Assembly: GCA_964201305.1 (NCBI GenBank)
Contig: CAXNEG010000001.1
Location: 1-32,677 of the forward strand
DNA from: Polaromonas sp.
Lineage (GTDB): Bacteria > Pseudomonadota > Gammaproteobacteria > Burkholderiales > Burkholderiaceae_C
Direction of reading: 5' to 3'
DNA length: 32,677 bases
The notes under the pieces are model-generated. The model saw only the letters and a program-made list of their open reading frames with translations. It was not told the origin of the DNA and did no database searches. The stretch's first letter is position 1, and each line of letters opens with the position of its first letter. Both the position numbers and the translations under genes were made by a program. This document shows, in pieces, positions 13,353 to 32,139 of this stretch.

Positions 13353-13372
13353 TAGTCCGACACGTCGGTCTA
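13353..13372. promoter_or_regulatory. Putative TetR operator 3 TAGTCCGACACGTCGGTCTA
   Basis: Most symmetric copy; lies in the divergent reductase/TetR2 spacer. Confidence 0.88.
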
Positions 13373-14360: not shown

Positions 14361-14384
14361 GGCGTTCTACACCGCATTGGAGTA

Positions 14385-14791
14385 AATTTTTGCCGCCAAT
14401 GACAAGCATGCACCTGCTTGATCTCCTGAGGCTGCAGGGATGGCAGAAATTTGAGGTCGTTGGTCGACCCCATGTGCACGCTGCAATGCTCGGCGGCACG
14501 TTTCGCCATGGCTCGTACCAATTGTTTCAGCCGCTCTTTCGGTATTCCTGGTCCGTGAGCAATCGCGCCCAGCCCGCCCACGGCACTTGAGATGTGCTCG
14601 CTGGTGAGCACAAGCAGCAGCACTTCCTTGCAAGGAAAGTGGTGGTTCAGCTCGGACTTGGACACATTGCACGCCACCGCGATGTCCTGCAGCTTGCGGC
14701 TCTCAAAGCCTAAGCGGGCAAACAGGCTGGCTGTACCCTCGCAGATCTTTTTACGTCTGTCGTTGTGGTTACTGGCACGCGGTCTGGCCAG
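14385..14791 (-). pseudogene. Degenerate third TetR paralogue
   Basis: LARPRASNHNDRRKKI...LQDIAVACNVSKSELNHHFPCKE and NDLKFLP align with TetR1/2; no ATG; C-terminus lost; boundaries approximate. Confidence 0.75.
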
Positions 14792-14831
14792 CTTGTTGCG
14801 GCACAAGGTTGAACCGGGTCTTTTGATGCAA

Positions 14832-16052
14832 CTACCGAGCGACCACGCCCCGGTCACACAGGCTTCCATACTGGGCTTGCGTCACGCCCAGCAGTTGCGA
14901 CAGCACCTCGCCCGTGTGCTGCCCCAGCATGGGTGAAACACCCGCCGGCAGGCGCTTCATCCCCGAGAAGTTCAAAGGCAGACCCGCCGCCAGATACTTC
15001 CCCACCCCCGGCTGATCAATCGTTCTGAACATCGGGTTGGCCGGAGAGCAGGCTTCGTCCTGCGTGACCAGCTGCGCGAGCGTCTGGTACTTGCCCCAGC
15101 AGGCGCCGTGTTTCGTCAACGCGGCTGCTGCCTGAGCATAGCTGTGGCGTGCCATCCAGCCCTCCACCAGCACGCCAAGTTCCTTGCGGGCCTCGAAACG
15201 GTGGCCTTCCAGGTGCAGGTTCAGGCCCCGTTGCTCGCCCAGGATCCTCACCGCCTCGTTCAACCCCATGGCTTCGCAAATGGCCTGCCATTGCTTCAAG
15301 GTCAGGCCCACGATGATCACGCGTTCGCCGTCCGCCGTCTTGAAGTCGCGGCCAAACGCGCCGAACAGCTCGTTGCCGTGGCGCTCGCGCTGGTGGCCAA
15401 GCTGAGCCTCGGCGATAAGGCCCAGGTGGCTCACAGCAGCGAGTGCCACGTCTTCGAGCGGCAGCTTCACATGCTGGCCCTGACCCGTCTTCAGTCGGTG
15501 GCGTTCTGCGGTCAGCAGGCCGACTGCTGCCATCTGGCCGGTCACGAGATCCCAGGCGGGCAGCACGTGGTTGACCGCTTCCTGGTTGGCCGTGCCGCGC
15601 TCATCGCCCGTGATGTACGGGATGCCCACGCGTGAGTTGATGGTGTAGTCGACCGCCGAGCCGCCATGTCGGTCGCCTTGCACGGTGAGCTGGATCAGGT
15701 CCTCGCGCTTTTCCTTGAGCTTGTCGTGATCGAGCCAGCCGCGCGCCGGAAAGTTGGTCAGCAATATGCCGGCGTCTTCGCCCGGCGCGGTGATGAGTGC
15801 CATGGCGATCTCGCGTCCTTCGGGCTGGCCCAAGTCAAGCGTGACGGACCGTTTGGACTTGTTAAGGCCGCACCAGAAGAGGCTGACATCGTCGTGCGTT
15901 ACTGGCCATCGCTTGTAGTCGAGCCCTCCGCCCAGCGTGTCGATACGGATCACATCTGCGCCCATCTGCGCCAGAGTCATGCCGCCCAGCGGCGCCGCCA
16001 CGAACGCAGCAGCCTCGACCACGCGCATGCCCGCCAAGATGCCTTCTGTCAT
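14832..16052 (-). CDS. mct: Mesaconyl-CoA C1-C4 CoA transferase (2-methylfumaryl-CoA isomerase)-like family III CoA transferase
   Basis: FVAAPLGGMTLAQ, GGGLDYKRWP, VNHVLPAWD, GAFGRDF, NPMF closely recall Chloroflexus Mct (from memory). Confidence 0.85.
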   Translation of the reverse strand: MTEGILAGMRVVEAAAFVAAPLGGMTLAQMGADVIRIDTLGGGLDYKRWPVTHDDVSLFWCGLNKSKRSVTLDLGQPEGREIAMALITAPGEDAGILLTNFPARGWLDHDKLKEKREDLIQLTVQGDRHGGSAVDYTINSRVGIPYITGDERGTANQEAVNHVLPAWDLVTGQMAAVGLLTAERHRLKTGQGQHVKLPLEDVALAAVSHLGLIAEAQLGHQRERHGNELFGAFGRDFKTADGERVIIVGLTLKQWQAICEAMGLNEAVRILGEQRGLNLHLEGHRFEARKELGVLVEGWMARHSYAQAAAALTKHGACWGKYQTLAQLVTQDEACSPANPMFRTIDQPGVGKYLAAGLPLNFSGMKRLPAGVSPMLGQHTGEVLSQLLGVTQAQYGSLCDRGVVAR

Positions 16053-16053
16053 G

Positions 16054-17736
16054 TCAGTCCTCCGCAGCCTGCAGGCCCAAGGCGCGCTCCATCAGGCTGC
16101 GCGCAATCACCTTTAGCGCCAGCGTTTCTTCCGCGCCCTCGAAGATGGACAACACGCGCGCATCCACAAAATAGCGGCTTACTGCGGTTTCCTCAGCATA
16201 CCCCATGCCGCCATGCAGTTGCAGAGCCTCGCGGGTGACTAGTTCGGCCGACCGGCAGGCCAGCAGCTTGACCAGGCTGGCCTCCATGCGGCCGTTGCCG
16301 GTGTCCACAATGCCGGCAACGGTGTAGGTAAGCCGCCGGCAGGCTGCCTGGCGAGCGGCCATGCGTGCAAGCTTGGCCTGCGTGAGGGCAAACCCGCCCA
16401 GCGGTGCACCAAACACCTTGCGGTCGCTTGAGTAGCGAATGGCCGCACGCAATGCAGCGCGCATCACGCCGCAGGCGCGCGCGGCGGTCTGGATGCGACC
16501 GCCCACCATGCCGGCCATGGTGAAGTAAAAGCCCTTGCCCAGACCCGCCTCGCCACCGATCACATTGGCGTCGGGCACAAAGAAATCCTCGAATGACAAG
16601 TCAAACGAATGCATGCCGCGGTAGCCGATGGTCGGTATGGCCCGGCCCGTGAGCTTGCCGCCGCCATCTTGCTGGTAAGTGAACTCGTGGCTGTCGTACG
16701 AAGGCTTTTCCACCAGCAGCAAGCTCAGGCCCTTGTGGCCCAGCGCGCGGTCCGACTGGGTGCGCGTGACCACCATCAACACGCCTGCCTTTCCGGCAAA
16801 GGTGCACCAAGTCTTGGCGCCGTTCAGCACCCAGCCGCCAAGCACCTGCGTGCCCTTCAGGCCCAGCGCGGCAACGTCCGAGCCGTAGTCGGGTTCGGTG
16901 ATAGCAATCGCACACAGCGGGTCGCCCGCGGCCAACCGGGGTAGCCAGTGAGCCTTTTGCGCCTCGGTGCCACCGGTCATGAGGGCGCGGCTCAGAATTT
17001 CGGGACGGGTGATCAGGCTGCCCCCGGCGGCCAGCGACGCTTCGGAAAGAGCCTCTGTCACCACCACCATCAGCAAGGTGTCGTCGCGGTCGTCAGGGCC
17101 GCTGCCGCCGAACTTCTCGGGAATCGCCAAGCCAAAAACCCCCATCTCGCGCATGGGCTGCAACAGTGACTCCGGCACGGTGAGGTCATGCCGGTGGATA
17201 GATTCGGCCTGCGGGGCCACCACTTCGGTGGCAAAGCGTCGAAAGGCGTCCTGGACCTGTGCGTGCTGCCCATCCAGCAGAGGCGCAGCCACATCGTCAT
17301 CCTCTTGTGCCACGGCACGGCCGGTGGCCTCCAACGCCCGGGCACCGCCAGCTTCGCGCCGCAAGCGGGTCCAAGCTGCACTGTCACGCACCCCGCGCAG
17401 CGCAGCGGCGTCCAGGCCGGCCTCGGCGTACACCGTCTCCAGCCGGTCGATCACTGAGATGACGGCGTCCACCGTGAAAACAAGCGCCAGCTGCACCTGC
17501 AGTACGGGCGAGTCCGGTGCCACCGCCGCCACACTGACCTCGGCCGCCAGCAATTCGGCGCCGGCCCAGGCCATCTCGAAGCTGGCCACCTGCTGCTCAT
17601 CGAGCAAGCGGTTAACTAGCCGGCCCTCGCTGGCACAGGCACGCGCCAGCGCGGACACACCGACGTCGAATACAGGGCGCAGCGCCGACAGCACCTCGCG
17701 TGCCGCCTGCATTTGCTGCTTGATGGTGTCGTTCAT
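16054..17736 (-). CDS. Long acyl-CoA dehydrogenase with N-terminal extension, methylsuccinyl-CoA dehydrogenase (Mcd)-like
   Basis: TEPDYGSD, GAKTWCT, IGYRGM, RIQTAARA, HGGMGY, IFEGAEE; ~560 aa; adjacent to mct; alternative start 17742. Confidence 0.85.
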   Translation of the reverse strand: MNDTIKQQMQAAREVLSALRPVFDVGVSALARACASEGRLVNRLLDEQQVASFEMAWAGAELLAAEVSVAAVAPDSPVLQVQLALVFTVDAVISVIDRLETVYAEAGLDAAALRGVRDSAAWTRLRREAGGARALEATGRAVAQEDDDVAAPLLDGQHAQVQDAFRRFATEVVAPQAESIHRHDLTVPESLLQPMREMGVFGLAIPEKFGGSGPDDRDDTLLMVVVTEALSEASLAAGGSLITRPEILSRALMTGGTEAQKAHWLPRLAAGDPLCAIAITEPDYGSDVAALGLKGTQVLGGWVLNGAKTWCTFAGKAGVLMVVTRTQSDRALGHKGLSLLLVEKPSYDSHEFTYQQDGGGKLTGRAIPTIGYRGMHSFDLSFEDFFVPDANVIGGEAGLGKGFYFTMAGMVGGRIQTAARACGVMRAALRAAIRYSSDRKVFGAPLGGFALTQAKLARMAARQAACRRLTYTVAGIVDTGNGRMEASLVKLLACRSAELVTREALQLHGGMGYAEETAVSRYFVDARVLSIFEGAEETLALKVIARSLMERALGLQAAED

Positions 17737-17750
17737 GCGCATTCCCTTGT

Positions 17751-19061
17751 TCAGACCGGCACGGTGGCAAGCACCGCCAGAGCCTTGTTCGCGGCCTCGC
17801 GCCCGGTATAGGCGCAGGCCTGGGTGCCGCCATCGCCATAGTCCTTGACGGCGTCACCCACATGCCACAGGTTGGCCAGCGGCGTGTCCTGCGACATGTC
17901 GTAGCCCGCGCACGAGCGCTGGGCCGGCCACTCGTCGCGCATCACGCGTACCGACAGCATTTTGGCGTCCTTAAAGCCGGGAAAGATATCGCGCAGGTCA
18001 GCCAGCGACTCCTCAATTTCAACCTTGTCATTAAAGTCGCCGATGGCTGGGCGCGGCACGGCGTAGGCGACGTACTGGTACCAGCCGGGCGGCGCCAGCT
18101 CGGGGCAGGTGGCCGTAAGTTCGCCCATATTGCACAGGCGGCGCGTCTTGCCAAAGGTGATTAGTCCGGGCACGTCCAGCAGGCGTTCACGGGTGGCGAA
18201 ATTGATAACGATGTTGGCCGCCGGCTGCAGGAGTGATTTGGCCTGAGCGAGGTAATCGGCGCCAAATGCCTCGGCGCCGGGCAGCAGCGCCGTGGCCGTG
18301 GGGCCGATGTTGCTGATCACCACATCGGTCTCGACACGTTTCGTCACACCCCCGTGCTCAATGTCCAGCGCCGTGACACGGCCGTTTTCCGAATGCAGGG
18401 CCACCACCGGGGCTTCCAGCCAGATCTCGCCGCCGCGCGCGCGGATGCCATCGCCCAGGTCGTTCCAAAGGCCAATCGTGCCGCGCGGGCAGAACCCGAA
18501 GCGCTTGAACGCACCCTTTTGCGCAAAGTACACCAGGAAGGCGCGCGCGGGCAGTTCGTCGGCATTCACTGCGAAGATCGCCGCGCACAGGTTGCGGAAG
18601 ATCGCATGCACGGTTTCGTTGGTGGTGTATTGCTCCAGCCACTGGCGGGTGGTCAGCTTGGCCTCGGGCAAGTCACCAGCACGTGCGTCGGCAAACTTCG
18701 CACCAATCTTGGCCGCCTGCTTGGTGAAGGTTCCCAGCAGCATGCCCCAGCCGCCCTTGGCCACATTGATGACTTTGCCGTCAATGTAGAACACGGTCGC
18801 CGGGTTCGGTTCGCGGATGTCCAACTGCACGCCCAGCATGTCGAAGGTCTCCTCGAAGATGCCGCCGCGCTCAATGGCAATGGCGCCGATGTTAACGATG
18901 TGGCCGTCAATGATTTCGCTGGAAGCGCGGCCGCCCAGGCGGTTCATCCGCTCCACCAGCAACACTTTCTTGCCGGCGGCCGTCAGTCGCGCCGCCGCGC
19001 TCATGCCGCCGGCGCCGGCACCGATTACAACCGCGTCGTAGCGGGCAGTGTTTGCATTCAT
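17751..19061 (-). CDS. FAD-dependent oxidoreductase, phytoene dehydrogenase-related
   Basis: VIGAGAGG, ERMNRLGGR, NLWHVGD; AGGAG RBS before ATG 19061. Confidence 0.85.
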   Translation of the reverse strand: MNANTARYDAVVIGAGAGGMSAAARLTAAGKKVLLVERMNRLGGRASSEIIDGHIVNIGAIAIERGGIFEETFDMLGVQLDIREPNPATVFYIDGKVINVAKGGWGMLLGTFTKQAAKIGAKFADARAGDLPEAKLTTRQWLEQYTTNETVHAIFRNLCAAIFAVNADELPARAFLVYFAQKGAFKRFGFCPRGTIGLWNDLGDGIRARGGEIWLEAPVVALHSENGRVTALDIEHGGVTKRVETDVVISNIGPTATALLPGAEAFGADYLAQAKSLLQPAANIVINFATRERLLDVPGLITFGKTRRLCNMGELTATCPELAPPGWYQYVAYAVPRPAIGDFNDKVEIEESLADLRDIFPGFKDAKMLSVRVMRDEWPAQRSCAGYDMSQDTPLANLWHVGDAVKDYGDGGTQACAYTGREAANKALAVLATVPV

Positions 19062-19099
19062 GAAATGGTCTCCTGAGGTTGGTCGTTTGTTGGGGGGCT

Positions 19100-19908
19100 T
19101 CACGCGAATGCCGCCGAAGCCTTCATGCCGGTAAATCCTTCGGCGTCGCTCGTCCAGAGTTCGGCACTGCTAGCTGTGGGTGTACCGCAGGCGCGCATCG
19201 TCTGGCCTTCAAAGGCCGGACGTATTTCGCGAAATGAAAATCCCTTGATCGCTGCACCGGGTTGCTCGCGCTGCACCAGGTCCAGCAACGGCGTGGCCAG
19301 CAGAGGGTCGTGCACCACGAGCGAGGGGTAGAACTCGACCTGTGATGCGCAGTCACGGTCGATATGGATGCGGTGGCCGTTGTAAGTGAGGGCCGAAAAC
19401 CGGAAGAGCAGCGCCGTATCGAGCAACAGCGTACGAACCAAACGGGCGCTGCAGGCGCGCTCTCCCCCGACGGCAACGGCGCGGACGTGGTGGGTGCATC
19501 CCGGTAGACGATGTTCTGTTCCTCGGCGATGCAGGTGTGTCCGCCCTGGCTCTCCTGATGGTCCACCATCACAAACACTAGCGGCCCGTTTTTGCCTTCT
19601 TTCAGGTCGATGCTGCAAATGGTAGATACCTTTTGCGCCGTGCGCCCGATCAGCAGCGGCGCCTGAACCTGCAGGCGCCCTGCGGCCCACATGCGCAGTG
19701 GCAGCGGCACGGGCGGCAGGAAGCCGCCACGCAGCGGGTGGCCGTCTGCACCGGTGGCCGCGCGTGCAGGAGCATCCAAGAAATAGAGCCAGCGCCAGGG
19801 CAGCGGCAGAGCGTCGCCCTCGCCCGTTTTACCCGGTCGGTCCAGGAGATCCGCCAAAGCGCGCGCGGGAAACGGGTCGATGGCCAGCGCCGCCGGTGCG
19901 GCGTTCAC
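19100..19908 (-). pseudogene. MaoC/hot-dog hydratase (mesaconyl-C4-CoA / itaconyl-CoA hydratase type), frameshift near 19436
   Basis: GFLPPVPLPLRMWAAG and EEQNIVYR in one frame, LFRFSALTYNGHRIH in another; length 809 is not a multiple of 3. Confidence 0.82.
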
Positions 19909-21416
19909 CGCTGTGCCTCCGGCGTAACCAGTGGCAGCCTCAGCGCAACGCGGCGCACCAGCCAGGGACTGGCACGGTAACGCGGGTCTCCCGTGGCGTC
20001 ATGTTGCGCACGCAGGATCGCCAGGATATGGGCCGGGCCGATTCGGTCGCCCCAGGCCAGCGGGCCGTACGGATACCCCAGGCCCAGCTTCACCGAGTCT
20101 TCCAGGTCGGCCACGCTGGCGATGCCGCGCTGCACGATATTGGCCGCAATGTTGACGATGGTGGCCATGACGCGCTGCGCGATGAAGCCACCAGAGTCGT
20201 TGATCACCGTGACCGCGACACCATCGCTGGCCAGCAGCGCATAGGCCATGTCACGCGCACCAGGCGCCGTGACGGTGGTGAGCATCAGCGTGCGGCGCAG
20301 CTCAAACGGCGTGATGGGGTCCACCGCCACGGTGCGGGCCGGATCCAGTCCGAGCGAAAGTGCCATGCTGGTGGCATCCATACCCCAGGGTTGCACGATA
20401 AACAGGCCGGCATCCCCGGTGCGGTTCACCACAGAGAGGCCGGCACCCACGGCCAGCGCCTTGAGCGCATCGGCCTGTGGTGCATGCGAATCCACCCAGA
20501 CACCTTGCGCTGAATCCAGCTTCGGTGCGACACGTGCGGGCGGGCGCACCTGCTTGGCGTCGTCGTAGCGGTACCAGCCTTCACCGCTCTTGCGCCCGAA
20601 CAGGCCGGCCGCCACCCGCGGGGGCACCAGCGACGAAGGCCGAAAGCGCGGCTCCTGCTGGAACTGCTCGTAGATCGACGCCATCACCCGCGACGACACA
20701 TCCAGCCCCGTCAGGTCCAGCAGCTCGAACGGTCCCATGCGAAAGCCCATGGCGTCGCGCAGAACGTCGTCCACATCGGCGGGTGTAGCCACCTGCTCCT
20801 CAACCACCCGAAGGCCTTCGGTGTACAGGCCACGACCTGCGTGGTTAACCAGAAAACCTGGCTGGTCAGCCGTGACCACCGCGCGGTGGCCTGCGCCTTC
20901 GGTGATGTACTTGAGCAACTGTACCGTGGCCGGTGCGGTGCGCACAGCGGCGATGACTTCGGCTACTTTCATCAGCGTCACCGGATTGAAGAAGTGCAGG
21001 CCCGCCACGCGTTCGGGACGGGCACAGCCCGCGGCGATCTCGGACACGGTGAGCGACGAGGTGTTGGAAGCCAGCACGGCGTCATCGCCCACGATGGCTT
21101 CGAGGCTGCGAAAAAGTTCCCGCTTGACGCCCAGGTCCTCCACGATGGCCTCAACCACGACAGCGCAGCCGGCCAGCGCGCCCAGCTCCGGCGCGGCGCT
21201 GATGCCGGCGCGGATGCGCTCGAATGCATCCACGGCCAGGCGGCCCTTGTCCACGTTGCGCTGGAGCATGGCGGCCACATGGTGAATGGCTGCGGATGCC
21301 GCACCAAGCTGTGCGTCGTAGATGCGCACGGGGTGGCCCGCCTGCGCGTACAGCTGCGCAATGCCGCGCCCCATGGTGCCGGCGCCCACGACGCCGATGG
21401 TGATCTTGTCGGTCAT
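19905..21416 (-). CDS. 3-hydroxyacyl-CoA dehydrogenase, PaaH-like (~500 aa)
   Basis: GAGTMGRG, EAIVE, SNTSS, HFFNP, GPFELLD, duplicated C-domain. Confidence 0.93.
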   Translation of the reverse strand: MTDKITIGVVGAGTMGRGIAQLYAQAGHPVRIYDAQLGAASAAIHHVAAMLQRNVDKGRLAVDAFERIRAGISAAPELGALAGCAVVVEAIVEDLGVKRELFRSLEAIVGDDAVLASNTSSLTVSEIAAGCARPERVAGLHFFNPVTLMKVAEVIAAVRTAPATVQLLKYITEGAGHRAVVTADQPGFLVNHAGRGLYTEGLRVVEEQVATPADVDDVLRDAMGFRMGPFELLDLTGLDVSSRVMASIYEQFQQEPRFRPSSLVPPRVAAGLFGRKSGEGWYRYDDAKQVRPPARVAPKLDSAQGVWVDSHAPQADALKALAVGAGLSVVNRTGDAGLFIVQPWGMDATSMALSLGLDPARTVAVDPITPFELRRTLMLTTVTAPGARDMAYALLASDGVAVTVINDSGGFIAQRVMATIVNIAANIVQRGIASVADLEDSVKLGLGYPYGPLAWGDRIGPAHILAILRAQHDATGDPRYRASPWLVRRVALRLPLVTPEAQR

Positions 21417-21417
21417 C

Positions 21418-22203
21418 CTAGGAACCCTTGAATTGCGGTTTGCGTTTGTCCAAGAAGGCACGCATGCCTTCGGTCTTGTCTGCAGTGTCAAACAGCAACA
21501 GGAACTCACGGTTCTCCAGCGCCAGCGCGGCGTCCAGCGGCATGTCTGCCCCCTGGCGAAGCACGCGCCGCGTGGCGGCTACGGCCTTAGGCGGCATGCG
21601 GGCCGCCTTGGCCGCTAGAACCAGTGCACGCGCAAGTGCCTGGCCCGGCTCAGCCAGCTCCGCCACCAGGCCCAACTGGAACGCCCGTGCTCCAGTCAGT
21701 TGCTCACCCGTCAGCAGCATCATGCTGGCCACCTGCTTGCCCAGGCTGCGCACCAGCCGCTGGGTGCCGCCCGCACCGGGCATGATGCCCACGGCCAATT
21801 CCGGCTGGCCGAAACGGGCGCTGTCGTCGGCCACGATGAAGTCGCACATCAGCGCCAGCTCGCAGCCTGCGCCAAGCGCGAAACCGCTCACGGCGGCGAT
21901 CACCGGCTTGCGGGCGTTGGCCACCGGCGTCCAGTAACGGCCCAGGTCAATGTCGGCCACCTCCTGCGCACCTTTGTCCACCAGCAAGTTGAGGTCTGCA
22001 CCTGCGGCAAAGACCGTATCGCTGCCGGTAATGACAATGGCCAGGACCTGTGCATCGGCGTCCAGCGTGGCCACTGCCTGGGCAATCGCGCTGCGCATCG
22101 CTAGGTCCAGCGCATTGCGTTTATCGGGGCGGTTCAGCGTGACGACGCCTACCGCGCCTTCGGCGTGCACCCGCACGGGTACATCAATGGCGGCTTCAGT
22201 CAT
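21418..22203 (-). CDS. Enoyl-CoA hydratase, PaaF-like
   Basis: FAAGADL, GAGCELAL, FGQPE, PGAGGTQRL (both catalytic Glu present). Confidence 0.92.
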   Translation of the reverse strand: MTEAAIDVPVRVHAEGAVGVVTLNRPDKRNALDLAMRSAIAQAVATLDADAQVLAIVITGSDTVFAAGADLNLLVDKGAQEVADIDLGRYWTPVANARKPVIAAVSGFALGAGCELALMCDFIVADDSARFGQPELAVGIMPGAGGTQRLVRSLGKQVASMMLLTGEQLTGARAFQLGLVAELAEPGQALARALVLAAKAARMPPKAVAATRRVLRQGADMPLDAALALENREFLLLFDTADKTEGMRAFLDKRKPQFKGS

Positions 22204-22997
22204 GGTTGCTTCACGCCGGGGCGTGCAATGAAATCGGCCGTGCGCTTGTTGCGAAAAGCGTCGTAGCCTTCCAGAAAATCAGGACCGGTCAGGCAAACCG
22301 CCTGGTCGTCCTCCTCGCGTGCCAGTTCGGCCTGCAGCGTGGGCGCCGAGTCATTCAGCCGTTGCTTCATCCGGCCAAAGGCCTCCTGCGGCAGCAACGC
22401 CAGCGCAGCGGCCGTCTGCACTGCGGTTTGCATCACGTCGGCATCGGGCACCAGTGTGTCGGCAAGGCCCATGCGGTGCGCTTCTTCACCGGTCACCGCC
22501 TGGCCGCTAGTGAGAATTCGCCGTGCAGCGCACAGACCCACACGCCGGGGCAAGGTGAGCAGCTGCCCCCAGTCGGGCGCCAGCCCGAGCTTCATGAACG
22601 GGAACAGCACCCTGGTGCCAGGCCCCGCCACGATTTGGTCGCCCAGCAATGCCAGGCCAACCACAGCACCTGCGGCAATACCCTGCATCGCGCTCACAAC
22701 CGGAATGCGTGCGCCGGCCACCAGGCCGCACAACACATGGATGTGCCGCATGCGTTCACGCGCCTGCGCCTCGGTCAGACCCACCATACTGTGCACGTCG
22801 CCGCCGGCGGAGAACACCCCGTCCACACCCCCGAACACCAGAGCGCGGCAGCGGGTATCGGCCAGCAGGGAGCGCAGATGCTGCGTCATCTGCTCGCGTA
22901 CGTCGTAGTCAATGGCATTGCGCTTATCGGGGCGGTTGATGCGCAACCGCGCAACGTACGGCAGCGGCTCGTCTAGCAGAACCACAAGATCAGTCAT
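22200..22997 (-). CDS. Crotonase-family protein, PaaG-type
   Basis: NRPDKRNA, FSAGGD, LGLAPDWG. Confidence 0.88.
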   Translation of the reverse strand: MTDLVVLLDEPLPYVARLRINRPDKRNAIDYDVREQMTQHLRSLLADTRCRALVFGGVDGVFSAGGDVHSMVGLTEAQARERMRHIHVLCGLVAGARIPVVSAMQGIAAGAVVGLALLGDQIVAGPGTRVLFPFMKLGLAPDWGQLLTLPRRVGLCAARRILTSGQAVTGEEAHRMGLADTLVPDADVMQTAVQTAAALALLPQEAFGRMKQRLNDSAPTLQAELAREEDDQAVCLTGPDFLEGYDAFRNKRTADFIARPGVKQP

Positions 22998-23002
22998 GTG
23001 CG

Positions 23003-24205
23003 TCAAACCCCCTGCAGGCCCACGATGGAGATCGAGCACACGTTCTGCGATGGCTGGCCACCCAGGTTGTGGATCAGGCCCGTCTTAGGGTCTGCCAGCT
23101 GTCGGGAGCCGGCGCGGCCTTGCAGCTGCAGGTAAATTTCGTACAGCATGCGGATGCCGCTGGCTCCCACGGGGTGGCCAAAACACTTAAGGCCGCCGTC
23201 GATTTGGCACGGCACCGCGCCGTCGGCATCAAACACACCGTCAAGCACATCGCGCACGGCCTGGCCTTCGCCAGACAGGCCCAGGTCTTCCATAGTGACC
23301 AGCTCAGTGATCGAGAAGCAGTCGTGCACCTCGGTCATGCTCAGTTCCTTGCGCGGGTCCCGGATGCCGGCTTCCTGATAGGCCTTTTTTGCGGCGATGC
23401 GTGCGGTGTGCATGTAGCTACCGTCCCACTGGCTGGACTGCAGTTCCCAGCCATTGGACACCGCGAGCTGCAATGCCTTGAAAGTCACGAGACCGGTTTT
23501 CCCCAAAGCGCGTGCAATCTCCGGGGTGGTGACCACCACGGCTGCGGCGCCATCGGACACACCGCAGCAGTCAAACAGGCCCAGCGGCGCGGCAATGGTG
23601 GGCGCCTTCATGCACTGCTCTTCGGTGATCGGCTTTTGCAGGTGGGCCTTGGGGTTCTTCGCACCGTTGGCGTGGCTTTTGATCGAGACGTGCGAGATGG
23701 CGCGCTTGAGCAACGCAGCATCGATGCCATGTTTGGTCCGGTAGGCACTGGCCAGTTGAGCGAAGTTAGCCGGTGCTACCGCGTTTGGGTACCACTGCGG
23801 AATGTAAGTACCCACCTGCGCCATGGGCAGGCCGCCATAGCCGGTGTCCTTGAGTTTCTCAACACCCAGCGCCAGCGCGATGTCACAGGCACCTGCGGCC
23901 ACAGCATAAACCGCGGCTCGAATCGCCTCGGAACCACCCGCGCAGAAGTTTTCCACCCGGGTGACACCGATGTTCGGCAGGCGCAGCGCAATGCTCATGG
24001 GAGTACCGCCGCGGCCCGTGCCGACGTCGTCCATGTGTGTGGAGTACCAGGCCGCGCCTAGCTGCTCCGGCGTGATGCCGGCGTCCGCCATAGCTTCGTT
24101 ATAGGCCTCCAGCATGAGGTCTTCGGGACTAGCGTCCCAGCGCTCGCCAAATTTGCTGCAGCCCATCCCGAGGATGGCGACTTTGTCCTTGATGCCCGTG
24201 GCCAT
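23003..24205 (-). CDS. SCP-x/SCP2-type thiolase (acetyl-CoA acetyltransferase)
   Basis: VENFCAGG, VSDGAA, EVHDCFS, GHPVGASG, HNLGG. Confidence 0.92.
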   Translation of the reverse strand: MATGIKDKVAILGMGCSKFGERWDASPEDLMLEAYNEAMADAGITPEQLGAAWYSTHMDDVGTGRGGTPMSIALRLPNIGVTRVENFCAGGSEAIRAAVYAVAAGACDIALALGVEKLKDTGYGGLPMAQVGTYIPQWYPNAVAPANFAQLASAYRTKHGIDAALLKRAISHVSIKSHANGAKNPKAHLQKPITEEQCMKAPTIAAPLGLFDCCGVSDGAAAVVVTTPEIARALGKTGLVTFKALQLAVSNGWELQSSQWDGSYMHTARIAAKKAYQEAGIRDPRKELSMTEVHDCFSITELVTMEDLGLSGEGQAVRDVLDGVFDADGAVPCQIDGGLKCFGHPVGASGIRMLYEIYLQLQGRAGSRQLADPKTGLIHNLGGQPSQNVCSISIVGLQGV

Positions 24206-24216
24206 TCCAATTCCTT

Positions 24217-25680
24217 TCAGGGGTTGGTGGAAGCAGCACGCACCGGCGTGGCTTTCCAGAAGTAGCGGGTGAATCCGCGGCGCTCGTCCACGTCCTTGAC
24301 GCGAAACACCATTTCCATGGCGGTGCCGGAATCGACCTCACCGATATCCAAGTCGGTGAAGTCCATCAGGATGCGCCCGCCGCCTTCAAAGTCGATCTGA
24401 CCGTAGTGATGGGGCGGCGCCGGGTGGTACGACAGGTACTCGGCCGACCATGACAGAATTTTTGCGGGCCGGTCGGCCAGCTTGTGGGGTTTTTGTGTGT
24501 CCTGCAGCGGTTTGCCTTGGTCGTACGACAAGCGCGATGGCGGGAAATGCACGCTGCCAGTCACCTCACAGCGGCCCGCCACCAGCCCCATCAGGGCCGT
24601 CCGATGTCGCCAGGCGGTGGACAGCGCGGTTTTTTTGTCCTGCTCGCCGCGCATGCCGCGCTCCAGTTGAAGCTGGCCATTGAACGCGAGAAATTTCGTG
24701 TAATTGCGCTCTTCGGCGCCGCGTGCGAGCCACTGGCCGACACCGCGCGCCGGACGGAACGAGCCAATGGCATCGGTCACCCGGAACACCAGCGCCTGCG
24801 CGCCGCTGCCAAACTGCGCAACCACGATCACCTGGCCAGGCCGGGCACGCTCCAACACATGGGCCAGCAGCAGCAGACCGTGTGGCAGGCCGCTGTCGCC
24901 CACCTGGTCCAGCAGCGCATCCACCACCGCTTCTGCACGGATGCCGCAGGACTTGGCCAGCTGAGTGTCCATTTTGGCGAAGCTGGACGGGAAGATGAAG
25001 TGGTCTACCTGCGCGGCCCCCACGCTCGCCTGCTGCAACGCCGCGGCCACCGCGCGCGGCATCAGCTTGCCGATGCCCTCGTCACGAACCCAGCGCTCCT
25101 CCCAGTGGTAGTCCACGGCCTCGCCGGTGGCGCGGAAGTGGTCGACAAAGTCAACCGATAGCGTACCCGCGCCCAGGAATTCAGCCAGCACCCTCTCGCG
25201 CCCGATCAGCAGCGCTGCAGCGGCATCGCCGTAGTCCAGCTCCTGCGGACTGGCCGCGCGGGTCTTGCGCTCGTCCGCGGCCATTACGAGCACGTCGCCC
25301 GCGCCAGACTGCACCCTCGCGACGGCCTGCACCACCGCCGACAGCGCCGCGCGTTGAGAGCCGCCCATGTCTAGCGCATCAATGTCGTCAGCCAGGGCCA
25401 GCGCACCGGCTGCAATGCCTGCGTTCATGCGCTCGGCAAACGGCAGAGTGTCAGACGCCAGAAACACAGCCCGCACATGCGCGCGGCCTTCATCCACACC
25501 GAGGCAATCGCGCGCTGCGGCCACAGCCATGGTGATGCTGTCTTCGTCCCAATTAGCCATAGCGCGTGTGCCCTTGCGGCCGGCAAAGTGGGGCGCATAC
25601 CAGGAATTGGCCTGCACTACCGCCTGGCGCGACAGGCGCAGGCGCGGCAAGTAGCCGCCGAAACCAGTGATTCCGATCAT
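24217..25680 (-). CDS. HMG-CoA-synthase-fold + DUF35 (Zn-ribbon/OB-fold) fusion protein
   Basis: GITGFGGYLPRLRL, DEDSITMA, GDAAAA, FGSG, then GRCEVTG..FPP, DFEGGGR, YFWKA. Confidence 0.88.
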   Translation of the reverse strand: MIGITGFGGYLPRLRLSRQAVVQANSWYAPHFAGRKGTRAMANWDEDSITMAVAAARDCLGVDEGRAHVRAVFLASDTLPFAERMNAGIAAGALALADDIDALDMGGSQRAALSAVVQAVARVQSGAGDVLVMAADERKTRAASPQELDYGDAAAALLIGRERVLAEFLGAGTLSVDFVDHFRATGEAVDYHWEERWVRDEGIGKLMPRAVAAALQQASVGAAQVDHFIFPSSFAKMDTQLAKSCGIRAEAVVDALLDQVGDSGLPHGLLLLAHVLERARPGQVIVVAQFGSGAQALVFRVTDAIGSFRPARGVGQWLARGAEERNYTKFLAFNGQLQLERGMRGEQDKKTALSTAWRHRTALMGLVAGRCEVTGSVHFPPSRLSYDQGKPLQDTQKPHKLADRPAKILSWSAEYLSYHPAPPHHYGQIDFEGGGRILMDFTDLDIGEVDSGTAMEMVFRVKDVDERRGFTRYFWKATPVRAASTNP

Positions 25681-26615
25681 GTGGATGTCTTTCGGGTGGA
25701 CGCGGCGTCAAGATGCGCCGCAATGAACTGGCCGCCCGCCACAAGCGCGTTGCGCGCCTCGGGCAGCTCAGCGGGAAACTGCTGGAATACGTGGATCATG
25801 CCGGGCCATATCTGCAACTCAGCCTGCGCGCCGGCGGCATGGGCTTTGCGCGCGAAGTCTTCCGAATCACTGACCACGGTCTCGCGCTCGCCCACCTGCA
25901 GCAGCAGGGGGGGCAGCGCGCCCAGCTGCGCTGATGTCGCAAACAAGGGCGACACCAGCGGGTCCTTCGCGTCGGCGTCGCGGCCCAGGTAATTGCGCGC
26001 CATGGCCACAATCATGGGTTGCTGATGGATAGGGTCGAGCGCGGCACGGGTCTGGTAGCTGGTGCCCGATGCGCTCAGGTCGGTCCACGCGGACAGGCCC
26101 CAGAAGGCGGCCGGCAACGGCTCGCCGCGCGCCTGCAGCGTCAGCATCAAAGACAGCGCCAGGCCGCCACCGGCCGAATCGCCAGCCAGCGCCACCTGTG
26201 ACCCAACCACGCCCTGCGTTTGCAGCCATTGCCAGACGGTCAAGGCGTCGTCCGGCGCCGCGGGGTAGCAGTGCTCGGGTGCCAGCCGGTAACCCACGCC
26301 CAGTACACGCGCCCTGGCCGCGGCGCCGATGCTGGCCATGAGTTCGCAGTGAGATGCAAGCGAGCCCACCTGGAACCCGCCGCCATGGAAGTAGACGATC
26401 AAGCGGTCTTCGCGCGCACCGGTGGCGACTACCCATTGGCATGGCACGCCGCCTGCATCGACCGCATCCACCTGCGCATCGCCGCGCGCGCTGAACAACG
26501 CGTCCCAGTCGGCGCGCATCTGCGCTACCGGGGTATCGCGCCGCCAGCGGCCGTAGGTCTGGCGAATGCGCGTGATCACTGCTTCAACAGCAGGGTTCAC
26601 AGTGGAGTCACTCAT
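25677..26615 (-). CDS. Alpha/beta hydrolase, family IV (HSL) esterase
   Basis: HGGG, YRLAPEH, GDSAGG, E...GMIHVF. Confidence 0.92.
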   Translation of the reverse strand: MSDSTVNPAVEAVITRIRQTYGRWRRDTPVAQMRADWDALFSARGDAQVDAVDAGGVPCQWVVATGAREDRLIVYFHGGGFQVGSLASHCELMASIGAAARARVLGVGYRLAPEHCYPAAPDDALTVWQWLQTQGVVGSQVALAGDSAGGGLALSLMLTLQARGEPLPAAFWGLSAWTDLSASGTSYQTRAALDPIHQQPMIVAMARNYLGRDADAKDPLVSPLFATSAQLGALPPLLLQVGERETVVSDSEDFARKAHAAGAQAELQIWPGMIHVFQQFPAELPEARNALVAGGQFIAAHLDAASTRKTST

Positions 26616-27361
26616 GCGCCGCACCCCATGCCACCGGACACACCCAGTACCTCGCCTGTCACAAAACCTGCTGCGTCACTTGCCAGAAACGCCACTGCAG
26701 CCGCGACTTCATCGGGGGTACCCAGACGGCCCGCCAGAGTGGCCTCCGTCATGGCGGCCATGATCTTGTCGCCAGCCTGTGCCACCGCCTTGCGCAGCAA
26801 GGGCGTGTCGATGGGGCCGGGCGCCACCACATTGGCGGTGATGGCCTTGCGGCCGTTCTCGCGGGCGATGGAGCGGGTAAAGGCAATCACGCCACCCTTG
26901 GCCGCCGCATACACCGAGCCGCCGCGCGAGCCCAGGCGGCCCGCTTCAGACGCCACATTGATGATGCGCCCATAGCCGGCCTGCTGCATGGCGGGCAGTA
27001 CCGCATGGGTGGTGTTGAGCACAGACTCCAGGTTCACCGCCAGCAGCCGGCGCCAGTCATACGGTGAGGTTTTCGTGAAGAAGGCATGCTGGTCCACGCC
27101 CGCGCTGTTGACCAGGATGTCAAACGGGCCACTTTCGCGCACGACGGCATGGACACGGTCAAAATCGGTCACGTCCAACTGCACACCCGTCGCGCCGATT
27201 TCACCCGCAAGGCGCGCCGCAGCGTCACCTTGCAGGTCGGCGATGACCACGGCTGCGCCGTCGGCGGCAAGCCGGCGGGCAATGGCTGCGCCGATGCCGC
27301 TGGCGCCGCCTGTGACCAGTGCGCGACGGCCCACAAGCGGGGTTGCGTTGGCGGCGGCCAT
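26612..27361 (-). CDS. SDR oxidoreductase, BadH (2-hydroxycyclohexanecarboxyl-CoA dehydrogenase)-like
   Basis: TGGASGIG, NSAGVD, ASEAGRLGS, YAAAK, PGPIDT. Confidence 0.9.
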   Translation of the reverse strand: MAAANATPLVGRRALVTGGASGIGAAIARRLAADGAAVVIADLQGDAAARLAGEIGATGVQLDVTDFDRVHAVVRESGPFDILVNSAGVDQHAFFTKTSPYDWRRLLAVNLESVLNTTHAVLPAMQQAGYGRIINVASEAGRLGSRGGSVYAAAKGGVIAFTRSIARENGRKAITANVVAPGPIDTPLLRKAVAQAGDKIMAAMTEATLAGRLGTPDEVAAAVAFLASDAAGFVTGEVLGVSGGMGCGA

Positions 27362-28182
27362 CAGCGCCCCGTGAAGCGCGGTGCGCGCTTTTCAATAACG
27401 GCCGACAGACCTTCGCGGGCATCGGCCATGCCGCTGAGCATGGCTTGCGTGCTGTTTTCCTCGTGCATTACGGCTTCGACGCCCTGGCCGATGCCGCTCC
27501 ACAGCAGGCGCTTGGTGTTGGCCAGCGCGGCGGGTGCGCCGGCGGCCAGCTGCCGCGCCAGCGCCAGCGCCTCTTCGTTGAGGTTGGCGTCGGGCACCAT
27601 GCGTGTGATGAGCCCCATCTCCTTGGCCTCGGGCGCCGTGATCACCGGGTTGAGCATGAGGATTTCAGTGGCGCGGCGCAGGCCCACCAACTGCGTCAGC
27701 GTGACCGAGACGCCCGCATCGGGCACCATGGCCACGCGTGTCGCACCAGCCAGGAACTTGGCGGATTCGCCGGCGACCACAAAGTCGGACGAACACACCA
27801 GTCCCATGCCGCCGCCGCCAGCCGCGAAACCGTGCACGGCCGTGACTACAGGCGGGTTCAGGCGCAGCAATCCCGCAGCAACCAATTGCAGATATGAAGT
27901 TGCCACGCGGATGTAGTTCGGCAGATCCTCGCCCTTGGACAGGAAGGTGTGAACGTCGCCACCAGCGCAGAAGTTTTTGCCTTCGCCGCTGATAAGGACG
28001 GCGCGCACGCGGCCGTCGCCATGCACCTGCATGACCACCTCATGCAGCGCCTTGAGCAGTTCAATGTTCAGCCCGTTGGCTGATTCGGGCCGGTTCAGGC
28101 GTATGTGGGCCACGCCATCGGCGTGCAGTGCGAGCAGCACCGGGCCGTCGGCCATGAGGACAGTGGGGAAAGCAGGGATCAT
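27361..28182 (-). CDS. Crotonase-family protein, PaaG-type
   Basis: LNRPE, FCAGGD, GFAAGGGG, MVPDAG. Confidence 0.9.
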   Translation of the reverse strand: MIPAFPTVLMADGPVLLALHADGVAHIRLNRPESANGLNIELLKALHEVVMQVHGDGRVRAVLISGEGKNFCAGGDVHTFLSKGEDLPNYIRVATSYLQLVAAGLLRLNPPVVTAVHGFAAGGGGMGLVCSSDFVVAGESAKFLAGATRVAMVPDAGVSVTLTQLVGLRRATEILMLNPVITAPEAKEMGLITRMVPDANLNEEALALARQLAAGAPAALANTKRLLWSGIGQGVEAVMHEENSTQAMLSGMADAREGLSAVIEKRAPRFTGR

Positions 28183-28192
28183 TTCATGCGCC

Positions 28193-28684
28193 TCAAATCA
28201 GGAAGGCCATGGAGTACAGGGCCGTATGGTTATTGACCAGCATCACCTTCTTAAAGGCCATGCGCAGGCTCTCACCTTCGCGACGCAAGGTGTATTCGTT
28301 GCGCGACGCCCAGATCTGGTCGCCACGCGTCTGCGACTCGAACACCATCGCATTGGCTGCAACCTTCAATTCGGTGCCGTCGTCGCTCAAGATCTCTACA
28401 TTGGAGACTAAGCGGCGAAGGCGCGACTGCGGCGTCTGGCTGAAGCGCTTGCCGGTGTGATACTGGCGGATGCGTAAAGCGATGCGTGAACGGTTGTCGT
28501 AAATAATTGACATCTGCTGCTCGGGGTCGATGTCGTCACCATTGGCTGGCACCCAGTAGACGCCGTCGTCGGTCCACAGGCTTTCCCAGGCGTCATAAGC
28601 GTTTTCGTCCTGTAGCCGCGCTTCGCGATAGATAAACTGGGTGACCTCTTCGAGCGTAGCGCGTTGTTCCGGGGTCATCGCCAT
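28193..28684 (-). CDS. Aromatic ring-hydroxylating (Rieske) oxygenase beta subunit
   Basis: FIYREARLQD, YWVP, QTPQSR.RRLVSNV; TAATG coupling to alpha. Confidence 0.92.
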   Translation of the reverse strand: MAMTPEQRATLEEVTQFIYREARLQDENAYDAWESLWTDDGVYWVPANGDDIDPEQQMSIIYDNRSRIALRIRQYHTGKRFSQTPQSRLRRLVSNVEILSDDGTELKVAANAMVFESQTRGDQIWASRNEYTLRREGESLRMAFKKVMLVNNHTALYSMAFLI

Positions 28685-29973
28685 TACGCGGCCTCCATCA
28701 TGGATTTGTAGTGGCGCCATATGCCGCGGCTGGGCACCTCGTCGGTGTTGTCCCCGATCAGGAACCCGTCTTCGTCGCGCCTCTCGCGGTGCTTGCCGCG
28801 CCCTAGGTACAGCCACTCGGGTTTGCGCATCTGCACACCCATTTGCGTGCGCTCGTACATTTCAGCGTCATCGGCCAACAGGAAGCCGGCCGGCCCCACG
28901 GAGCCCATGGTCTGCTGGCGCAGGCGGCGATTCAGGTCCGGCGCACCCTTGAACTGCAACGCCGTCACGTGCTGGACAGTCTCGTTCACCGACAGCGGCT
29001 GGATCACAAAGATCTGAATCTCAGCAATGAACAGATTCGGAAAGATCATGATGTGCGGCGTGCCGTCGATCATGATGGTGCGGGCCTTTTCGTGCCCGTA
29101 TGCCGCGTTCATTTTTGACACATAGTCGGGCAACTTTTCGACCGTGGTGCCAAACCACGACATGGGCACGTCGCGCTTGCGGAATTCGGGGCGAAGGTCG
29201 TTTTCAGTGTGGCCGTTGCCAAAGTCCCGCGACACGGCGGTGGACTCGGCGCTGTACAGGGTGCCGATGCCGCTTTGCGCCACCTCGAAGACGGACGCGT
29301 GAACGAACGACGGGTGGTAGCCGTCGGTTTCGTTTTCCACGAGGAATTTCCAGTTTGCCTTGACCTTGTGCTTGAGAAAGCCCGCTGTGATCTGGACCTC
29401 GCCCTCGGGCGAGGTCTCGCAAAGTGCATCGATCGAGCGCATCGCCGCGCCCAGGTGCTGCTGTAGAGTTGGCCCCTGCTCGGCCATCGAGCCGAAGACG
29501 AAGCCACGGTAGTTACCTATGCGTGCCACCTTACCCAAACCCAGTTCGCGGCGGTCAACGCCCTCGTAGCCCGAAGGGAACGGGTAACCCTTCAAGTCGC
29601 CGTCATTGGCAAAGGTCCAACCGTGGTACGGGCAGGTGAACGAACGTGCATTGCCCTGCTCGGTCATGCACACCCGGTTGCCGCGGTGCGGGCAGCGGTT
29701 GTGAAGCAGGTGAATCTCGCCCGACTTGTCGCGCGTCATGAGCACCGGCTCGGGGCCGATGGACTTCATCACGAAGTCATTTGGATTAGGGATTTCACTT
29801 TCGTGGCCCACGTACACCCAGGTGCGAAACCAGATGTTCTTAAGCTCTTCCTGGTAGATGGCGGGGTCGGTATAAAGCGAGCCGTGCACCTGGTTGGCCC
29901 GGACCAGATGGTCCCAGGCCGGTGCGGGCCCGGACGGTGCTTGCACGATAGGAATGGTGGCGCGGTGTTCCAA
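28684..29973 (-). CDS. Aromatic ring-hydroxylating (Rieske) oxygenase alpha subunit
   Basis: CPHRG...CPYHGW Rieske motif, NWK...ENETDGYH..FVH, DDAE; TTG start with GGAG RBS. Confidence 0.95.
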   Translation of the reverse strand: MEHRATIPIVQAPSGPAPAWDHLVRANQVHGSLYTDPAIYQEELKNIWFRTWVYVGHESEIPNPNDFVMKSIGPEPVLMTRDKSGEIHLLHNRCPHRGNRVCMTEQGNARSFTCPYHGWTFANDGDLKGYPFPSGYEGVDRRELGLGKVARIGNYRGFVFGSMAEQGPTLQQHLGAAMRSIDALCETSPEGEVQITAGFLKHKVKANWKFLVENETDGYHPSFVHASVFEVAQSGIGTLYSAESTAVSRDFGNGHTENDLRPEFRKRDVPMSWFGTTVEKLPDYVSKMNAAYGHEKARTIMIDGTPHIMIFPNLFIAEIQIFVIQPLSVNETVQHVTALQFKGAPDLNRRLRQQTMGSVGPAGFLLADDAEMYERTQMGVQMRKPEWLYLGRGKHRERRDEDGFLIGDNTDEVPSRGIWRHYKSMMEAA

Positions 29974-30016
29974 AAGCTGACTCCAGAAAGGGTTGTTGGA
30001 GCTGATAGTTAGTGCA

Positions 30017-30046
30017 ATAATAGACCGACGGGACGGACTATGTCAA
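30017..30046 (-). promoter_or_regulatory. Sigma70-like promoter TTGACA-N18-TATTAT for the oxygenase operon
   Basis: tgtcaa at 30041-30046 and ataata at 30017-30022 on the + strand. Confidence 0.7.
30021..30040. promoter_or_regulatory. Putative TetR operator 4 TAGACCGACGGGACGGACTA
   Basis: Reverse complement TAGTCCGTCCCGTCGGTCTA fits the consensus; divergent oxygenase/ferredoxin spacer. Confidence 0.88.
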
Positions 30047-30085
30047 TAACTTGTTCGTGCCCACTTACAGAGGAAAAAACATCCC

Positions 30086-30406
30086 ATGCCCACCGTCGTA
30101 TTCATAGATCACGCCGGCGCGACCTACCCGGTTCAGGCGCCGCTCAACAAGAGCCTGATGCAGGTCGCTCTGGATAACGCCGTGCCAGGCATCCTGGGCG
30201 ACTGCGGCGGCTCTTGCAGTTGTGCCACGTGCCACGGCTATGTTGACCAGCCCTGGGCCGCGCAGCTGCCGGCGCGCTCGGAGACCGAGGTGTTCATGCT
30301 GGAAGGGGTACCTGAGCTGCGGGACAACAGCCGCCTATGCTGCCAGATCCGCATGACCGCACAGCTAGATGGGGTGGTTGTCCATCTGCCGAAGGAACAG
30401 ATGTGA
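30086..30406 (+). CDS. [2Fe-2S] ferredoxin, adrenodoxin/putidaredoxin type
   Basis: CGGSCSCATCH and SRLCCQ; GAGG RBS. Confidence 0.93.
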   Translation: MPTVVFIDHAGATYPVQAPLNKSLMQVALDNAVPGILGDCGGSCSCATCHGYVDQPWAAQLPARSETEVFMLEGVPELRDNSRLCCQIRMTAQLDGVVVHLPKEQM

Positions 30407-31313: not shown

Positions 31314-31315
31314 GA

Positions 31316-32100: not shown

Positions 32101-32120
32101 TAGTCCGTCTTGTCGGTTTA
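32101..32120. promoter_or_regulatory. Putative TetR operator 5 TAGTCCGTCTTGTCGGTTTA
   Basis: Consensus copy 32 nt upstream of the NQO start. Confidence 0.85.
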
Positions 32121-32139
32121 TATATGTTCATTTTCCAAG

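Follow-up and report, generated by a model that had tools for sequence, protein, structure and literature searches.

We analysed one whole contig of 32,677 nucleotides (CAXNEG010000001.1, hereafter the window) from a Polaromonas sp. genome (GCA_964201305.1; 1.65 Mb assembled, completeness 61.6%). The window carries an operon of 14 minus-strand genes (29973 to 14832) that starts with the alpha and beta subunits of a Rieske oxygenase and continues mostly with enzymes acting on coenzyme A (CoA) esters. The cluster is genuine, widespread among bacteria and unstudied. We propose, as an evenly balanced judgement, that a substituted arylacetyl-CoA or 2-arylpropionyl-CoA, its likeliest substituent being a para-methyl group, is oxygenated, opened on CoA without a catechol and beta-oxidised to methylsuccinyl-CoA. 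Within this proposal, catechol-free ring opening is reasonably probable, an arylacetyl-type substrate is slightly favoured, and the para-methyl group is put forward tentatively.

We placed the alpha subunit (28684 to 29973, minus strand) in a tree of 85 rows, with supports from a quick search. It belongs to a distinct 63-row clade (SH-aLRT, an approximate likelihood ratio test, 99) that is sister to eight Ipf-type rows (joint support 98). The nearest characterised relative is IpfA of plasmid pIBU218 (43% identity), recognised via the plasmid and its gene order. We rejected iad, aniline dioxygenase, BenA, AndAc and Bph as possible identities because all lie outside the alpha clade. The family is compact: in a profile search, two full-length clusters at 50% identity score 792 and 698 bits, after which the score falls to 442. 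The Rieske ligands (C94, H96, C114 and H117) are invariant in 31 of 31 sequences; at the iron site, H220 and H225 are present in 63 of 63 rows and D369 in 62 of 63, and the window's copy has all of these residues intact. The AlphaFold model, read at fold level only (pocket loops score under 50 in the predicted local distance difference test, pLDDT), matches IadD and NDO with a template modelling score of about 0.8. By its ligands, 2-His-1-Asp site, fold and beta subunit (28193 to 28687, minus strand; Pfam and NCBIfam), the pair is a Rieske ring-hydroxylating oxygenase of the alpha3beta3 type.

The active site bears on the substrate. Column 322 holds Phe in 63 of 63 clade rows (Phe322 in the window) and a hydrophobic residue in 8 of 8 Ipf rows, whereas 11 of 14 outgroup rows have Arg there, as do 83 of the 115 full-length relatives from the library. 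The equivalent Arg, by our alignment to AndAc and a TphA-like protein, is described in the excerpted text of PMC9060491 as binding aryl carboxylates in TphA2, NagG and AndAc. At eleven pocket positions, 118 of 120 close homologues agree, and such a near-invariant pocket suggests one substrate type. IpfA shares 10 of the 21 pocket positions compared; its substrate is a CoA ester according to PMC9195938, and the substrates of IpfF include tolylacetates as well as 2-(p-tolyl)propionate according to PMC9956071. Because the alpha subunit is sister to IpfA, has lost the Arg and stands under PaaR-type regulation (see below), the oxygenase very probably acts on a CoA ester, as the original prediction had it. 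The preprint PMC12633357 reports IadDE as a monooxygenase with a likely epoxide intermediate, so both a diol and an arene oxide are plausible products.

The other operon genes were assigned from open reading frames (ORFs), Pfam and NCBIfam. Intergenic gaps of -4 to +38 nt, which depend on our start-codon choices, bear out the tight coupling claimed for the 14 genes. The crotonase ECH1 (27361 to 28182) lacks both hydratase Glu residues, carries an invariant Asp155 at the PaaG Asp column and is of the isomerase type. It is followed by a short-chain dehydrogenase/reductase (SDR; 26612 to 27361), whose top NCBIfam match is BadH (238 bits, under the 431 cut-off), and by an alpha/beta hydrolase of the HSL family (25677 to 26615; HGGG and GDSAG motifs), a candidate lactonase or C-C hydrolase. 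A PhlA-like, HMG-CoA-synthase-like domain without the catalytic Cys is fused to a C-terminal DUF35 (24217 to 25680); the thiolase and DUF35 predicted originally are thus both present, the latter as part of a fusion. The SCP2-type thiolase (23003 to 24205) has Cys88, HDCF and GHP motifs and scores above the PRK06157 cut-off. Cys88 of this thiolase is found in 40 of 40 sequences and HDCF in 39 of 40, whereas IpfD reads YDAF and has no such Cys. In the excerpts of PMC12329534, HDCF is the mark of SCP2 thiolases and YD.F/Y that of aldolases; judged by these motifs, the window partner is a true Cys-thiolase and not an IpfD-type retro-aldolase. The operon continues with ECH2, a second Asp-only crotonase (22200 to 22997); ECH3, a two-Glu hydratase (21418 to 22203; 48% to E. 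coli PaaF); a 3-hydroxyacyl-CoA dehydrogenase (19905 to 21416; above the PRK08268 cut-off, 36% to PaaH); a frameshifted Meh/Ich-like hydratase (19100 to 19908), an intact homologue of which matches itaconyl-CoA hydratase (Ich); an FAD enzyme of the phytoene-dehydrogenase/CrtISO (CrtI-like) type (17751 to 19061); an acyl-CoA dehydrogenase (ACAD) resembling (2S)-methylsuccinyl-CoA dehydrogenase (Mcd; 16054 to 17742); and a mesaconyl-CoA C1-C4 transferase-like protein (Mct; 14832 to 16052). The CoA-ester enzymes named originally are all there; the hydrolase, the FAD enzyme and Meh had been left out. A [2Fe-2S] ferredoxin (30086 to 30406), which had been counted within the range, lies on the plus strand and is divergent from the operon.

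The distal genes narrow the substrate, which had been thought unreadable from sequence. The ACAD matches Pseudomonas migulae (2S)-methylsuccinyl-CoA dehydrogenase PmMcd closely over its full length (E 2e-220 to PDB 8CIW, residues 17-558) and by that match is of the PmMcd type. Mct matches PDB 7XKG (E 4e-148) and scores 500 bits against TIGR04253, under the 725 cut-off. Mct is needed only when CoA sits on C1 of methylsuccinate, and excerpts of PMC12290011 describe the C1 ester as a dead end for the itaconate cluster. By our reasoning, C1-C2 opening of a para-methyl ring followed by two thiolyses gives the C1 ester. This is also the product of the mml route, in which thiolysis of 4-methyl-3-oxoadipyl-CoA yields methylsuccinyl-CoA (PMC6449761, in part). 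An aroyl-CoA such as toluoyl-CoA, 1,2-dioxygenated, was rejected by the same kind of reasoning, as its C7 chain has no path to methylsuccinyl-CoA without a decarboxylase, and an N-heterocycle was rejected because no amidase occurs among the window ORFs. Aromatic terpenoids such as ar-curcumene and p-cymene could yield p-tolyl acids bearing an alpha-methyl group. Set against the paa pathway, whose steps we took from PMC4498308, the window has homologues of PaaG, PaaF and PaaH (32-48%) with matching acid residues, with both hydratase Glu in ECH3 and only the Asp at the PaaG column in ECH1, ECH2 and a crotonase at 500 to 1312, and all score under the NCBIfam equivalog cut-offs.

A racemase-like gene also bears on the side chain. 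The family III protein at 1863 to 3026 has 47% identity to M. tuberculosis MCR versus 21-25% to CoA transferases, and its H133 and D162 motifs, which we take to be those of the racemases (titles of MCR structure entries naming H126A and D156A agree), are invariant in 7 of 7 sequences. Because its model is of low confidence (pLDDT 63), it is on identity that we class it as an alpha-methylacyl-CoA racemase. MCR structure entries include profen-CoA complexes. In the window and several relatives the gene is flanked by transglutaminase-like (3030 to 3719) and DUF2889 (1309 to 1866) proteins.

Regulation ties the contig together. A strong sigma-70 promoter (TTGACA-18-TATTAT, 30017 to 30046, minus strand) precedes the alpha gene, and its spacer holds a palindromic operator (30022 to 30039; core ACCGAC-NN-GTCGGT) between -35 and -10. 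The pattern, built from this site, occurs six times in the window (0.09 expected), five times upstream of gene blocks and once inside an ACAD gene. With up to three mismatches, 38 of the 43 proteobacterial loci have it ahead of alpha, versus 0 of 860 control windows. The Burkholderia cenocepacia PaaR operator, ACCGACCGGTCGGT, has the same core and position according to the excerpts of PMC2770484, and phenylacetyl-CoA releases PaaR according to those of PMC9493321. A PaaR-like repressor, TetR1 (13452 to 14063, plus strand), is encoded in the window with an operator at 13354 to 13371. Its 11 weakest matches (31-38%) comprise three in Bradyrhizobium clusters and eight away from the cluster, 3.2-7.4 kb from paaA. 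With a TetR repressor and an operator between -35 and -10, this is by sequence a PaaR-type regulon. Because the operator is repeated six times, the whole 32-kb contig appears to form one predicted regulon, and the original boundaries of 14832 to 30406 were too narrow. The regulon likely includes a LIV-type ABC transporter block (5621 to 12225, minus strand; operator 12241 to 12258) with an embedded long-chain-type acyl-CoA ligase (8755 to 10632), and a minus-strand block at 500 to 5016 (operator 4942 to 4959) of ACAD, transglutaminase-like, racemase-like, DUF2889 and PaaG-like crotonase (500 to 1312) genes. Since the operator core is identical, a host PaaR might bind the same sites.

We assessed conservation of the cluster across 63 alpha-clade loci from Proteobacteria and Actinomycetota (58 from species-representative genomes and 5 from plasmids). 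An all-against-all BLAST family survey covered 1149 of 4731 ORFs, selected by composition score, and undercounts; the counts given here use tblastn. Among the 41 loci that span 18 kb or more, most with flanks limited to 10 kb, we detected beta in 41, ECH1 in 39, SDR in 35, hydrolase in 33, thiolase and fusion in 31 each, ferredoxin in 27, ECH2 in 24, and ECH3 and the dehydrogenase in 20 each. In 50 whole genomes from these loci, which are mutually related so that counts are not independent, alpha was recovered in 49, and the FAD enzyme is a near-universal companion (45 of 50; within 20 kb of alpha in 37 of 44). Mcd occurs in 31 of the 50, in 29 within 15 kb of alpha. A CitE-type lyase adjoins five loci. 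Relative to the nearest related locus (L001), the ratio of non-synonymous to synonymous substitution rates (dN/dS) is 0.007-0.15 in 12 operon genes, with ECH2 saturated; this and the gene order preserved in relatives argue that the cluster is not a chance assembly. Its distribution is patchy, as we found no clade member in 36 same-genus genomes (best matches 38-46%) or in 400 others of the order. Full-text literature searching, with thin coverage of subscription journals, found no paper describing the cluster, in line with the original view that this is not a characterised pathway. Of note, a SnoaL-crotonase fusion occurs in the Rhodococcus (L062:19749-20939) and Bradyrhizobium (L042:15431-16627) versions, the latter with alternative oxepin-CoA hydrolase as its top NCBIfam match (209 bits, under the 300 cut-off), and the alpha gene is split across frames in a Solirubrobacterales locus (L057).

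Gene content, conserved order, operator, family assignments and catalytic motifs are read directly from the sequence, and from them we infer the following steps. The substrate would be taken up by the ABC transporter and ligated to CoA, with an ACAD and the racemase shortening the side chain. Alpha/beta and the ferredoxin would oxygenate the ring at C1-C2, giving either a diol, as IpfAB does, or the kind of arene oxide that has been proposed for IadDE, and ECH1, as a PaaG-type Asp-only crotonase, would rearrange this product, most simply to an oxepin. In the weakest step, the SDR and hydrolase might produce an open 3-oxo-dicarboxylyl-CoA in place of PaaZ. The thiolase complex would take off acetyl- or propionyl-CoA, after which ECH2, the FAD enzyme, ECH3 and the dehydrogenase would lead to 4-methyl-3-oxoadipyl-CoA. 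Thiolysis would then yield methylsuccinyl-C1-CoA, from which acetyl-CoA and pyruvate would be formed by Mcd, Mct, Meh and a CitE-type lyase.

Several observations weigh against this route. No aldehyde dehydrogenase, PaaZ or other, is present in the cluster, which leaves the oxidation step as guesswork. At only 33% identity, ECH1 is no closer to E. coli PaaG than to other crotonases, and an Asp-only crotonase site is non-specific. PmMcd also oxidises succinyl-CoA, as the excerpts of PMC10266731 report, and Mcd is therefore no proof of a methyl branch; at the chosen threshold it is missing from 19 of the 50 cluster genomes. Thiolase and fusion are absent from 10 of the 41 long loci, and a thiolase and HMG-CoA-synthase-like pair is also described for the estrogen edc cluster (PMC7793797, in part), so the pair is not aryl-specific. 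BphA1 also carries the Arg of column 322, so its loss is no more than suggestive. Finally, the reductase and Meh genes of the window itself are broken.

The alternative that survives best, though we consider it unlikely, is an acyl-CoA with a non-benzenoid ring, for instance that of a furan fatty acid, a cyclic ether or an alicyclic terpenoid acid. Here the oxygenase would hydroxylate or epoxidise the ring, the SDR would form a lactone or ketone for the hydrolase to open, and methyl branches would end in methylsuccinyl-CoA. An oxygenase-SDR-esterase order is typical of cyclic ether and lactone routes. The top SDR match, BadH, is an alicyclic enzyme, and the long-chain-type ligase, the racemase and, in several loci, adjoining FadA/FadB-like genes point to a lipid-like, methyl-branched substrate; the CrtI-like enzyme and an APH-family kinase block of relatives speak for it too. 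That block (L090:8492-14027; also L092, L103 and L106) comprises a TRAP transporter, the kinase, a 156-aa helical protein, an Rv3169-family protein and a second CoA ligase; it lies between two TetR genes, has been lost from the window and is, we presume, reminiscent of the LvaA/LvaB 4-hydroxyacyl-CoA kinases. A second alpha/beta pair, 72-75% identical and with nearly the same pocket, is found in 7 of the 50 genomes, in six of them 20-42 kb from the first at the racemase end (L089:11306-13092; L091, L093, L094, L105, L107) and in the seventh on another contig. The second pair, the kinase block, the CrtI-like enzyme and the missing aldehyde dehydrogenase are unexplained and leave room for such a substrate. 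However, the nearest characterised oxygenase and regulator, IpfA and PaaR, both handle arylacetyl-CoAs, nearly half of the compared pocket positions are those of IpfA, and our paper chemistry from odd-chain furan fatty acids did not reach methylsuccinyl-C1-CoA.

A somewhat less probable alternative is an ipf-like route, in which an aryl-CoA diol is formed, the ring departs as a catechol or 2-hydroxyaryl acid whose cleavage genes lie elsewhere, and beta-oxidation serves a branched side chain only. It would fit the sister relationship to IpfA, the ease with which, on chemical grounds, ECH1 dehydration of a 1,2-diol would rearomatise, and the thioesterase and hydrolase that could free the product. 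The published ipf route proceeds through ligase, dioxygenase and retro-aldolase to a catechol (PMC9195938). As originally stated, the window has no intradiol or extradiol dioxygenase, by a Pfam scan of its 35 ORFs and by six dioxygenase queries. The same six queries matched Ipf-type and outgroup loci, which carry such a gene or, in the Ipf case, meta-pathway genes, but gave no match in the 63 clade loci; LigB and cupin types were left out of these locus queries, which weakens the argument for a catechol-free route. Elsewhere in the genome, where the 61.6% completeness makes negatives weak, we found no intradiol dioxygenase; three glyoxalase-fold matches look like small proteins of a single domain, and a contig end holds one fragment of the LigB family. 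The incompleteness and the fragment would both fit the ipf-like route. The clade loci also have no IpfD orthologue (partial matches of 27-33%, with 27% for the window thiolase) and no match to IpfE, whereas an IpfD-type thiolase-fold gene and an OB-fold partner occur in 6 of 6 annotated Ipf-type loci and a ligase in 5 of 6 within the fetched flank. The PaaF/PaaH-like and Mcd/Mct genes suit a ring-derived dicarboxylic chain. The predicted departure from ipf is in these respects supported.

Ipf-type genes were also seen in other settings. Uncharacterised Ipf-type clusters (L063, L065-L068, L071) occur in Rhodococcus DK17, Streptomyces, Variovorax WDL1, Chelativorans and Paraburkholderia plasmids. 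Ibuprofen genes occur in the genus of the window, since a same-genus genome (G408:C103:117888-119105, L072) encodes IpfA in nearly identical form and IpfD at 97%. The genome studied here has an IpfD-like gene (42% over 224 aa) on contig C3 (22212 to 22880).

Two further alternatives fare worse. It is improbable that the cluster offers another way to degrade plain phenylacetyl-CoA or benzoyl-CoA, with the Rieske enzyme in place of PaaABCE or BoxAB, although the PaaR-type operator and regulators, the PaaF/G/H-like enzymes and the absence of a detectable paaA in the 61.6% complete genome would fit: 34 of the 50 cluster genomes retain a paaA above cut-off, away from the cluster, and unsubstituted rings need neither the Mcd/Mct/Meh module nor a racemase. 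The predicted absence of PaaABCE and BoxAB from the window holds, for PaaA as no match of the E. coli protein among window proteins and for BoxAB by Pfam and NCBIfam scans only, with no BoxB search of the whole genome; unlike BoxC, ECH1 and ECH2 lack both Glu, and those scans placed no window ORF in a BoxC or BoxD family. That the oxygenase takes a free acid or neutral compound and the CoA genes are mere neighbours, as most Rieske oxygenases and the best solved relative IadD (free indole-3-acetate) would suggest, is very improbable given beta and ECH1 beside alpha in two phyla, the shared operator, the lost Arg and the kinship with IpfA.

Near-identical window DNA is present in lake and freshwater metagenomes from 15 studies, one of which may be the source of the window, with no RNA data set among the runs listed. 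The G+C content of the operon (60-68%) compares with 60.5% for the genome. Two genes are broken in the lake population. The Meh-like hydratase has a 1-nt frameshift near 19447, a site that contigs from three further runs span without a gap, and the ferredoxin reductase (12338 to 13298, minus strand) is a pseudogene in three frames with an internal deletion, intact in relatives. Assembly error was ruled out as a cause by the independent lake runs; across four other sequencing runs, no indel is listed inside genes between 20000 and 32600. No intact close reductase was found in the assembled part of the genome. Two sequencing runs show an additional 34-nt deletion in the reductase remnant. Decay also affects a TetR gene (14324 to 14869, minus strand) and a CitE-like remnant (32136 to 32231), and the core is under purifying selection. 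The same genome has an intact-looking second Meh-like gene adjoining a family III transferase (contig C171, 1189 to 3272) and a second Mct-like gene with an adjoining ACAD (contig C55, 1548 to 3973). The window further encodes a third TetR (5027 to 5611, plus strand) and, at 30432 to 32068 (minus strand; operator 32102 to 32119), a TesB-like thioesterase and a flavodoxin-fold NAD(P)H oxidoreductase.

Teaching on aerobic aromatic catabolism offers two schemes, a Rieske diol leading to a catechol or a di-iron epoxide formed on CoA. If our reading is true, a Rieske enzyme feeding CoA-bound ring opening bridges both schemes. We consider it possible, somewhat short of an even call, that the cluster is a third aerobic way of breaking a CoA-bound ring, with a Rieske oxygenase replacing PaaABCE/BoxAB and an SDR-hydrolase pair replacing PaaZ, that it serves as a catechol-free lake and soil route for terpenoid-derived p-tolyl acids, and that it is the natural origin of ibuprofen degradation. 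The cluster may reveal the natural substrates of the IpfA lineage and may bear on what becomes of profen drugs, alkylbenzene acids and aromatic terpenoids in fresh water. It is carried by cultured strains from several genera, which makes testing easy, and the conserved operator with its PaaR-like repressor is a direct handle for assaying the effector.

We compared the cluster to known systems. It is like ipfABDEF of Rhizorhabdus wittichii MPO218 (pIBU218) in its sister-clade alpha without the active-site Arg, beta, CoA ligase, and SCP2-fold protein with a DUF35 partner. IpfD carries the Tyr motif of an aldolase, and the catechol that it releases goes to meta-cleavage, whereas the window has a Cys-thiolase and the PhlA-like/DUF35 fusion and adds three crotonases, SDR, hydrolase and C5-dicarboxylate genes with no ring-cleavage gene nearby. 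PhlABC and the archaeal thiolase/HMGCS/DUF35 complexes share the PhlA-like domain, DUF35 and SCP2-type thiolase; in the window the first two are fused, the setting is catabolic and the thiolase is nearer to archaeal acetoacetyl-CoA thiolases than to PhlC. The iad indole-3-acetate pathway of Variovorax (IadDE, PDB 7YLS/9O71) holds the best solved relative by sequence and fold and pairs a proposed epoxide-forming Rieske enzyme with later ligase and thiolase steps, but structural identity is about 28%, IadCDE takes the free acid and the window has no amidase. The methylsuccinyl-CoA/mesaconyl-CoA module (PmMcd 8CIW, Mct 7XKG/8APQ, Ich 8HUC/8KHG) has close homologues in the window, fed by a CoA-dependent upper pathway and not, as in the mml modified 3-oxoadipate and itaconate routes, by 4-methylcatechol ortho-cleavage or itaconate. 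With paa (E. coli; PaaR-regulated in B. cenocepacia) the cluster shares PaaF-like and PaaH-like enzymes, PaaG-type crotonases (32-42%), PaaR-like repressors and the operator core and position; it differs in having neither PaaABCE nor PaaZ, in a thiolase of a different family (25% to PaaJ) and in the added methylsuccinyl-CoA module. The cluster thus works like a hybrid of ipf in its first step and paa in its later steps, and is a member of neither.

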